From: Planctomycetota bacterium
Lineage (GTDB): Bacteria; Planctomycetota; UBA8742; JACQVU01; JANLHZ01
Assembly (NCBI GenBank): GCA_024653775.1
Contig: JANLHZ010000268.1
Span: 3,555-67,554 of the forward strand
Direction of reading: 5' to 3'
Length of the DNA: 64,000 nucleotides
Shown here: positions 45,013 to 45,920 of the stretch, one piece after another
How positions within the stretch are numbered: position 1 is the first letter of the stretch
Layout: every line of letters starts with the position of its first letter
Translations under genes and position numbers: made by a program
Notes under the pieces: generated by a model
Databases searched by the model: none
What the model saw: the letters and a program-made list of their open reading frames with translations, nothing else
Told to the model about the DNA's origin: nothing

Positions 45013-45188
45013 ATTGCGGCCGGACGTTATCCAGTTCACTGACGCGCTCCCGAAAACCCGCTCCGGCAAGATTATGCGCCGCATTTTGAAGCGCATCGCC
45101 GCGGGGGAGCACGACATTGGCGACGCGACCACCCTTGCGGAACAGGGCGCCAGAGACAAACTCCTCGCCGAGCGACCGGGAAGTGATT
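45013..45188 (+). pseudogene. 3' fragment of a diverged acs allele (58 codons, no gene body)
   Basis: Encodes [57 protein letters not shown] then a stop. Synonymous differences from the resident acs. Confidence 0.8.
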
Positions 45189-45247
45189 GAATCACGAATT
45201 GCGTGAAACACCTTCCAGGCGCATGTATTCGGTGGTAGAATACTGTT

Positions 45248-45457
45248 ATGTTAAACGAAATTCGTATCGATAAAACCTCGTTCTCTGTCACGACAATCGA
45301 AGACGCGGACAAGGAGCCAAACTTCTGGATGAGTAAATCTCCCGAGGATCGATTCGCGGCTCTTGAACTCATGCGTCAGATAAATTATCCGGGTTATGAT
45401 CCAGTTACCGCGCGAGTTCAAAGAGTTCTTGAAGTTGTTGAACTCGAATGGCGTTAA
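45248..45457 (+). CDS. small hypothetical protein overlapping the downstream nucleotidyltransferase gene by 62 nt
   Basis: 69-aa ORF in lower-GC DNA. May be a partner gene or the 5' part of a frameshifted gene. Confidence 0.35.
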   Translation: MLNEIRIDKTSFSVTTIEDADKEPNFWMSKSPEDRFAALELMRQINYPGYDPVTARVQRVLEVVELEWR

Positions 45458-45845
45458 ATACGTCGTTGTTGGAGGATACGCCGTGAATTACCACGGCTAT
45501 GCTCGTTCGACAGCGGACATGGATATCCATGTGGAAATGAGCGAGGAGAATTCGCAAAAACTCGTTAGAGCGCTTGTAGAGTTCGGATTCGACGTGCCGG
45601 AGTTAAAGGAAGAACTGTTTCAGGTTCCGCATAAACTGATCAGGTTTGGAATCCCCCCGATGAGAATCGAAATTCTGACCACAATCTCCGGCGTGACATT
45701 TGACGAGTGCTACGCAGGAAGCGTAACGGTTTTGATTGAAGATGTGGAGGTCAACTTCATATCACGCGCCCTTCTGCTCAAGAACAAACGCGCGGCATCC
45801 AGAAACAGAGACCTCGACGATATAGAGAAACTGCGCGATCCCTGA
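45396..45845 (+). CDS. minimal nucleotidyltransferase-fold protein (MNT/AbiEii-like superfamily)
   Basis: VKYVVVGGYAVNYHGYARSTADMDIHVEM has the G[GS]...D.D NTase-fold motif. Confidence 0.6.
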   Translation: MIQLPREFKEFLKLLNSNGVKYVVVGGYAVNYHGYARSTADMDIHVEMSEENSQKLVRALVEFGFDVPELKEELFQVPHKLIRFGIPPMRIEILTTISGVTFDECYAGSVTVLIEDVEVNFISRALLLKNKRAASRNRDLDDIEKLRDP

Positions 45846-45863
45846 CGCGAAATTTCCAAAGTC

Positions 45864-45920
45864 GCCCTCGCGGACTCGAGTGCCAGAGACAAACTCATCG
45901 ACGAGAGGCCGAAGAAATAA
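45864..45920 (+). pseudogene. second short acs 3'-end remnant
   Basis: Encodes ALADSSARDKLIDERPKK then a stop. Compare acs C-terminus [16 protein letters not shown]. Confidence 0.7.

Follow-up and report, generated by a model that had tools for sequence, protein, structure and literature searches.

Two former acs 3′ ends around a presumed toxin-antitoxin cassette far from acs in a Planctomycetota genome: a candidate orphaned cassette-array unit

How does a small cassette come to lie between two copies of the 3′ end of a gene that is not beside it? The question is raised by positions 45013-45920 of a 64-kb stretch of DNA (the window), part of a contig of a metagenome-assembled Planctomycetota genome, where a minimal nucleotidyltransferase gene and a short open reading frame (ORF) are bracketed by two fragments of acs, the gene annotated as acetate--CoA ligase. 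An earlier note had read these fragments as remnants of a foreign acs allele and as direct evidence that such cassettes move between acs 3′ ends of different genomes or loci. The reading favoured here, to which an even chance is given, is that 45016-45920 represents an orphaned unit of an acs 3′-end cassette array, i.e., two former acs 3′ ends with a MenT1-like nucleotidyltransferase toxin-antitoxin pair between them, made by a recombinase and since decayed; the source of the array is best read as a related genome or a lost second copy of acs.

The unit opens with a fragment designated r4 (45016-45187, plus strand, stop codon at 45188-45190), which holds the last 57 codons of Acs and a stop, stands in the public record as the 58-aa hypothetical protein NUW37_16250, and matches the resident acs gene at its 3′ end (34608-34780, minus strand) over 172-173 nt, 84-85% of the nucleotides being identical (blastn E 2e-47) and the longest exact run common to r4 and the resident end being ~20 nt. 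Its first 41 codons are canonical Acs (RPDV...TTLA), and a 1-nt deletion in its tail shifts the final two codons. A spacer of 57 nt separates r4 from a 69-aa ORF, which together with the nucleotidyltransferase gene is all that the unit holds between its flanks, its own integration and transfer genes being absent. The unit is closed by r5 (45865-45920, plus strand), a second orphan acs 3′ end of 18 codons and a stop that reads ALADSSARDKLIDERPKK up to its stop codon and is 78.6% identical to the resident end over 56 nt. By translation as well as by alignment, both flanks are the Acs C-termini that the earlier note had taken them to be; both copies of the acs end are present and the gene body is missing.

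It was likewise claimed, and rightly, that no acs gene adjoins the cassette. The upstream neighbour of r4 is a native transglutaminase-like gene (44303-44998; G+C content at third codon positions, GC3, of 0.76), and the sole acs gene of the window (34609-36633, minus strand) lies 10.2 kb from r4 in inverted orientation. Its last 172 nt (r1, 34609-34780, minus strand) and r4 (plus strand) constitute inverted repeats that enclose these 10.2 kb of native genes. No acs homology remains upstream of r4, r5 or r3 (a further orphan end described below), and the junctions are clean. Native genes of the window have GC3 values of 0.73-0.81 and the small cassettes interspersed among them 0.43-0.63; accordingly, the genes on either side of the unit are native (0.76-0.77) and the cassette genes foreign (0.43-0.61). 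Abutting r5, at 45922-45946 on the minus strand, there is a 25-nt inverted copy (24 of 25 positions) of an internal coding piece (48211-48235) of a native gene 2.3 kb away, called gene X here, and this piece is possibly filler DNA from an illegitimate join that took place in this genome.

A nucleotide profile of the repeat (nhmmer) finds exactly five copies in the 64 kb, r1 to r5, with E values from 8e-21 to 2e-17, and the next match reaches E 0.05 only. The five copies fall at two loci, each of which carries one flanked toxin-antitoxin cassette. At the first locus, the resident acs gene encodes 658 aa and ends with r1; directly after its stop codon comes a 60-nt double hairpin with a T run (34547-34608, minus strand), terminator-like and similar to repetitive extragenic palindromic (REP) elements, whose DNA fold has a free energy of -19.8 kcal/mol (z -3.2). 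It is followed by r2 (34494-34550, minus strand), a short orphan acs end of ~57 nt whose translation closes with APNARDKLLEERPKK and a stop, and then by a cassette (33974-34491, minus strand) composed of a DUF4258 toxin gene (34195-34491) and a 74-aa ORF (33974-34198). The array is terminated by r3 (33840-33974, minus strand), an orphan acs end of 133 nt that is 97% identical to r1, is annotated as the 45-aa hypothetical NUW37_16195 and has native DNA beyond it. The order on the minus strand is therefore acs (r1), terminator-like hairpin, r2, DUF4258 pair and r3, a layout in which the 3′ end of the target gene is duplicated, r1 completing the gene and r3 lying beyond the cassette. The differences between r1 and r3 and between r1 and r4 fall chiefly at third codon positions and involve all four bases. 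The cassette of the resident array does sit at acs; the r4/r5 unit follows the transglutaminase-like gene instead. As a side observation, the REP-like double hairpin (TGTGGCACGGACGTCNCGNCCGTG ... CACGCGC-loop-GCGCGTG) occurs exactly twice in the window, at 34547-34605 (minus strand) and 22088-22135 (plus strand); both copies adjoin duplicated gene ends and the first presumably serves as the terminator after acs.

Did r4 decay from a copy of the resident gene, or does it come from another acs? Over its 41 canonical codons (RPDV...TTLA), r4 differs from the resident gene at 15 nucleotides, 13 of which are synonymous, as the earlier note had seen of this flank, and the other two change a single residue (S to H). 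By the Nei-Gojobori method the synonymous divergence (dS) amounts to 0.59 and the nonsynonymous divergence (dN) to 0.022, and neutral evolution would leave so few replacements with a binomial probability of 1.4e-6. As judged from this substitution pattern, the acs part of r4 diverged under purifying selection as part of a functioning acs gene distinct from the resident one, and not as junk. Additionally, the GC3 of r4 (0.83) is close to that of the resident acs (0.85) and unlike that of the cassette genes, which argues that the source of r4 shared the codon bias of the host and, hence, that r4 stems from a rather near relative or from a second copy that once existed.

The remainder of r4 has a different character. 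From codon 41 its translation switches from the expected DPSVV to EQGAR, after which DKLLAERP is retained, and the derived signature GCCAGAGAYAAACTC (‘ARDKL’ or ‘ARDK’ in translation) is found in r2, in the r4 tail and in r5, three occurrences in all and none elsewhere in the window. r2, r5 and the switch point of r4 start within ~6 nt of one acs position, ‘CCCTCGCGGAC’ at T-L-A|D, and the three tails are direct repeats with an exact common 15-mer core and a near-common 5′ boundary. Frame and stop codon are retained in these ‘AR’ tails; the arginine codon from r1 to r5 is CGC, CGT, CGC, CGA and AGG respectively, and over the last 33 nt r2 and r5 differ at 8 positions, of which 5 are silent and 2 conservative. 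The retained frame and stop together with the varied arginine codons indicate that the AR tails evolved as coding sequence and were real acs ends somewhere, and the signature that r2 shares with r4 and r5 places the cassettes of both loci in one acs-end-associated family. r4 is the junction between an acs body and a tail supplied by an element, and r5 is an older displaced tail. Neither a repeat copy beyond the five nor the 15-mer core was found at the other cassette borders of the window.

The cargo consists of the 69-aa ORF (45248-45457, plus strand), the presumed antitoxin, and the gene of a 149-aa minimal nucleotidyltransferase (45396-45845, plus strand), the presumed toxin, which overlap by 62 nt (45396-45457) in different frames. 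The latter has 2887 homologues, the nearest of which, besides the window's own database entry, is 62% identical, and its Pfam matches are weak (DUF2204, DUF6036, Aminoglyc_resit). An AlphaFold model built from 36 homologues reached a mean predicted local distance difference test (pLDDT) of 90.8, and its best Foldseek matches in the PDB are the MenT1 toxin (8an5 and 8an4; for 8an5, E 2.4e-5 and TM 0.67), TM1012 and LnuA, a MenT1/TM1012-like predicted fold that bears out the earlier assignment of the gene to the nucleotidyltransferases; residues G26, G27, D41 and D43 are invariant across the 36 homologues. The 69-aa ORF has no match in Pfam, NCBIfam, PADLOC or PHROGs; it is 48% identical to a 69-aa ORF at loci of another lineage (L085-L088), where the overlap with the nucleotidyltransferase gene is likewise 62 nt (4001-4062 in L085). 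In that lineage the pair stands alone between housekeeping genes. Compared across lineages, the two genes are evidently a module that is portable and most likely represents a toxin-antitoxin pair, and since no repeats were found to flank the homologous modules of other lineages, the flanks derived from acs do not belong to the module as such. Both frames of the overlap are conserved, an observation that may point to an unusually long conserved overlap or possibly to a frameshift site.

Where, then, is the acs gene that gave these ends? The r4 peptide, compared with 5.8 billion proteins, matched nothing but ORFs of the window itself and Acs tails of the canonical form ‘...TLADPSVV...’, no tail among the latter carrying ARDKL, and its best non-self matches were 65-75% identical; the closest protein to the full-length resident Acs in the same collection was 72% identical, which means that the database holds no close relative. 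All 80 of the 80 Acs tails of distant genomes and the database fragments that were inspected carry the canonical TLADP.VV and no ARDKL. Degenerate DNA patterns gave the same outcome, with no match to ARDKL[LI]xERPKK in metagenome contigs, none to DKL[LI]xERPKK in viral contigs, and none to the latter with a stop codon added in metagenome contigs. Among 80 acs loci of GTDB species genomes, taken with flanks of up to 10 kb where the contig allowed, none had a copy of the acs end downstream of its own acs, the secondary matches being other AMP-binding enzymes; synteny of neighbouring genes with these distant loci was uninformative except for a transglutaminase-like gene 4 kb from acs in one of them (L015). 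Exact-protein look-ups with the transglutaminase-like protein, Acs and the nucleotidyltransferase put no other assembly and no empty site on record. Of the short Acs fragments encoded on long contigs, one (L084) is a frameshifted acs and another (L081) an isolated fragment with no array, and phage-borne Acs C-termini considered as attP sites proved to be bacterial sequence deposited under phage names, ‘Pseudomonas phage Y6’ among them. An Asgard archaeon (L082/L083), on the other hand, has a true acs 3′-end duplication around a 2.8-kb insert, an independent analogue and not a relative. Its order (~1150-7080) is an acs split into three ORFs, the insert with two ORFs of 497 aa (faint LAGLIDADG match) and 325 aa, then the acs C-terminus again as a copy of 71 aa, and a transglutaminase-like gene.

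These results divide the earlier interpretation. Its premises that the flanks come from a non-resident acs allele and that the cassette belongs to an acs-end-associated family are supported; the step from there to movement from acs to acs is not, and to call the locus direct evidence of it was an overstatement, given that no donor, recombinase, relative or empty site was found in these searches and that the unit is not at acs. The donor allele that was to be sought appears neither among the 5.8 billion proteins nor in the metagenome and viral contig patterns.

Gene-end duplication around cassettes is general in this genome, as two further toxin-antitoxin cassettes with duplicated ends of another native gene demonstrate. 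One of them, a low-GC3 HipA_2 and DUF3037 cassette (17087-18703), lies between 104-nt direct repeats (16912-17015 and 18708-18811) that are 99% identical; the copy on the right belongs to a native radical-SAM/glycosyltransferase gene of 802 aa (18704-21112, minus strand) and constitutes its 3′ end. The other, a pair of DUF433 and DUF5615 (PIN-like) genes (21332-21952), lies between 134-nt direct repeats (20979-21112 and 21937-22070) that are 97.8% identical and correspond to the first ~45 codons, i.e., the 5′ end, of the same 802-aa gene. All four of the four repeat-flanked cassettes of the window are toxin-antitoxin-type modules. The joints of these two cassettes have peculiarities of their own: the stop codon of the DUF3037 gene abuts that of the 802-aa gene with 0 nt between them, the toxin ORF of the DUF433/DUF5615 pair ends 9 codons into the 134-nt repeat, and a promoter-like similarity (GGATATCGGGTTC...ATTATA), interrupted by an indel of ~46 nt, extends upstream of both 134-nt copies.

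According to the favoured reading, a small integrative element would enter the last codons of acs and supply a replacement tail, the enzyme remaining intact and the original tail being pushed downstream as a useless fragment, and successive events of this kind would build an array of end, cassette, end, cassette and end. The first insertions would most likely have been the work of a site-specific recombinase that was provided in trans or has meanwhile disappeared, and the elements would then have decayed to integrase-less minicassettes resembling cis-mobilizable elements (CIMEs). Flanking repeats would make such cassettes easy to delete, and toxin-antitoxin genes may persist because their loss by recombination between the repeats would kill the cell; the survival of toxin-antitoxin cargo only is what addiction of this sort would predict. 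The unit, or a larger piece with a whole foreign acs that was later cut to 172 nt, would have been inserted between the transglutaminase-like gene and a defence islet, and its arrival at the present site was presumably by illegitimate recombination and not by insertion into acs at this place. Most simply, a piece of the acs locus of a relative would have become trapped here. What favours a site-specific crossover in the origin of the array is that the AR repeats have a boundary in common, share a core and are conserved as coding sequence. Several observations weigh against this account. The acs repeats are of unequal length (~57, 133 and 172 nt), which a single att system would not give, and the 104-nt and 134-nt duplications at the ends of another gene would need several recombinase specificities within 64 kb. 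The ORFs scanned, the three largest native ones not being among them, showed no member of an integrase, transposase or other recombinase family, and the databases searched yielded neither a donor nor a related array, nor any Acs that ends in an AR tail. Lastly, the tails of r4 and r5 are only 70-79% identical, which implies that any site-specific event must be old.

A possible alternative, though one that is judged rather improbable, does without a dedicated recombinase: the gene end of a relative together with its cassette would enter through homologous recombination with the conserved gene end as its anchor, either by single-crossover (Campbell-type) insertion of a circularised fragment or by a homologous anchor and an illegitimate join, which duplicates the gene end and displaces the old one, and the r4-nucleotidyltransferase-r5 unit would be a piece of a relative's acs array trapped ectopically. 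Such a route sits well with the number of gene ends that are duplicated in the window (the acs 3′ end and both ends of the 802-aa gene, the 3′ end over 104 nt at 99% and the 5′ end over 134 nt at 97.8%), with their varying lengths, with the want of a recombinase gene in the ORFs scanned and with the allelic look of the flanks (dS 0.59, same GC3); the REP-like terminator family travels with r1, the 25-nt inverted filler from a gene 2.3 kb off lies right at the r5 junction, and displacement arrays produced by homology-facilitated illegitimate recombination have been modelled in the literature (PMC5361080). However, three AR repeats with nearly the same start nucleotide and an exact core would not be predicted by random illegitimate joints unless all descend from one orphan, duplication, as opposed to deletion, requires a circular intermediate or a sister chromosome, and natural examples are rare compared with gene-end duplications made by integrases. 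A wider form of the same thought, which is doubtful, would have a general route free of recombinase genes insert toxin-antitoxin and defence minicassettes at the ends of ORFs, duplicating 100-170 nt; the ends would act as portable homology handles with which cassettes hop among alleles across genomes and occasionally land elsewhere with their handles, and the AR tails would record at least three donor acs alleles.

It is less likely still that the cassette never moved, a second acs copy having once stood with it downstream of the transglutaminase-like gene, or an inversion between r1 and r4 having moved the acs body. The inverted repeats r1 and r4 that bound 10.2 kb of native genes and the native-like GC3 of r4 would suit such an in-situ history, a redundant acs with a needed gene on one side and an addictive toxin-antitoxin pair on the other could have been deleted to exactly the present state, and transglutaminase-like genes occur near acs in two unrelated lineages (L015 and L082). 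Yet a dS of 0.59 with 40 of 41 residues identical is hard to square with two old copies that escaped gene conversion, r1 and r4 show no mosaic pattern of exchange, and no acs homology is left upstream of 45016; an inversion, for its part, merely swaps which array is orphaned and leaves the origin of the inverted copy unexplained. A chimeric contig or a fortuitous similarity, which the origin of the window in a metagenome-assembled genome brings to mind, is highly improbable, given that the similarity goes far past chance (blastn E 2e-47, nhmmer E 1e-17), that an assembler would not join copies so diverged (85% and 79%) and with a longest exact run of ~20 nt between r1 and r4, that the junction of the transglutaminase-like gene with r4 has no sequence in common with acs, and that GC3 is native on both sides.

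Other features of the window lie outside this argument. The defence islet downstream of the unit surrounds native gene X (47040-48287) and occupies 46145-47026 and 48317-49806; it comprises an AbiJ_NTD4 protein that matches the PADLOC candidate system PDC-S32 (E 3e-87) and, between gene X and a convergent major facilitator superfamily (MFS) gene, an AbiLi-like AAA ATPase with a 160-aa partner, the stop codons being 3 nt apart, and no flanking repeats were found around it. Further low-GC3 inserts among native genes, at 6863-8973 and 58299-59591, encode an AAA_21 ATPase with DUF4276, a Phd/DUF6290-like antitoxin and AAA_14/DUF4143, and no flanking repeats were detected at them with a word size of 11. 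AT-rich inverted repeats (TAATTAATAATTAACAATTAA) occur in intergenic regions in pairs 40-350 nt apart (24324-24368 and 24701-24725; 37616-37650 and 37782-37825; 60266-60298 and 60340-60374) and could be regulatory or akin to miniature inverted-repeat transposable elements. A direct similarity of ~400 nt (67%) between 52331-52715 and 52770-53160 probably reflects two tandem paralogues of the glyoxalase family, in which case the 204-aa minus-strand ORF called there is likely spurious.

If the favoured reading holds, the acs 3′ end of an uncultured Planctomycete would be a hotspot at which small toxin-antitoxin cassettes insert, and this genome would preserve, in layers, former acs tails of several alleles, a record of gene flow among relatives that are not yet sequenced. 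The orphaned unit would indicate that a cassette of this kind can depart from its target and take its flanks along, which bears on the spread of integrase-less defence and toxin-antitoxin modules. Moreover, as two more cassettes with the same signature occur within 64 kb, the choice between a recombinase acting in trans and homology-driven insertion-duplication would be directly testable in complete genomes or long reads of this lineage.

How does the unit compare with systems that are already known? Its cargo resembles MenAT1 (Rv0078A/B) in the minimal nucleotidyltransferase fold, in the hGG and DxD motifs and in the short ORF immediately upstream, a likeness that concerns the cargo only; sequence identity to it is 17-20%, the Pfam families are different ones (here DUF2204 and DUF6036), the partner ORF overlaps the nucleotidyltransferase gene by 62 nt, and the toxin role is presumed from sequence and model. 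Integron cassettes are likewise compact, mostly promoterless and arrayed between short repeats, and toxin-antitoxin cargo is common in them, whereas the repeats described here are homologous to a gene end. The class was rejected: the five repeats fold no better than shuffled sequences (z -1.7 to +0.4) and are not attC hairpins, the array is headed by acs, and neither IntI nor attI is present. A diversity-generating retroelement with template and variable repeats was also set aside, as no reverse transcriptase family was found and the mismatches are not A-specific.

Displaced remnants downstream of a conserved gene are known from the orphan modules of Rhs and contact-dependent inhibition (CDI) loci and from the immunity arrays of the type VI secretion system (T6SS) in Vibrio, for which a homologous anchor and an illegitimate join have been proposed (PMC5361080); there it is the variable toxic tip of the gene that is exchanged, whereas here the gene end is constant and the cargo consists of independent toxin-antitoxin genes. 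In tycheposon and additive-island arrays, successive integrations push older elements outward and leave partial tRNA targets and degenerate remnants (bioRxiv 10.1101/2020.12.28.424599), and the present case differs in that the target is the end of a protein-coding gene kept in frame and that no integrases or integrase fragments are seen.

The closest parallels are elements that restore the gene end into which they insert. e14 and phage 21 enter the icd 3′ end of E. coli and supply a replacement end, the icdC pseudogene staying at the far side (PMC13626634, citing Hill et al. 1989), and the copies of the icd end around e14 differ mostly at synonymous sites (PMC13626634). The structure of r1/r3 and of r4 matches this arrangement, and the copies here likewise differ mainly at synonymous sites; e14, in contrast, is a 15-kb prophage with its own integrase whose orphan end adjoins the intact gene, whereas the cassettes here measure 0.5-0.8 kb, the ORFs scanned hold no recombinase and no integrase gene beside an att-like repeat, several generations of tails are present, and r4/r5 lies 10 kb from acs on the other strand. 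CIMEs, for their part, have lost the genes of integration and transfer, retain attL and attR and accumulate one behind another at a target gene's end by successive site-specific integrations, as exemplified by the elements related to ICESt1 and ICESt3 at the fda 3′ end (PMC5704250). The resident acs array (r1, r2, toxin-antitoxin pair, r3) has the layout of such tandem accretion, although its repeats are unequal, their att role is putative, the r4/r5 unit stands away from the target gene and no helper element is known. Taken alone, the unit is a variation on the known theme of decayed, gene-end-restoring integrative cassettes; it stands in an unstudied lineage and at a new target gene, acs, with an unusual ectopic orphan and a pattern that extends across the whole window.

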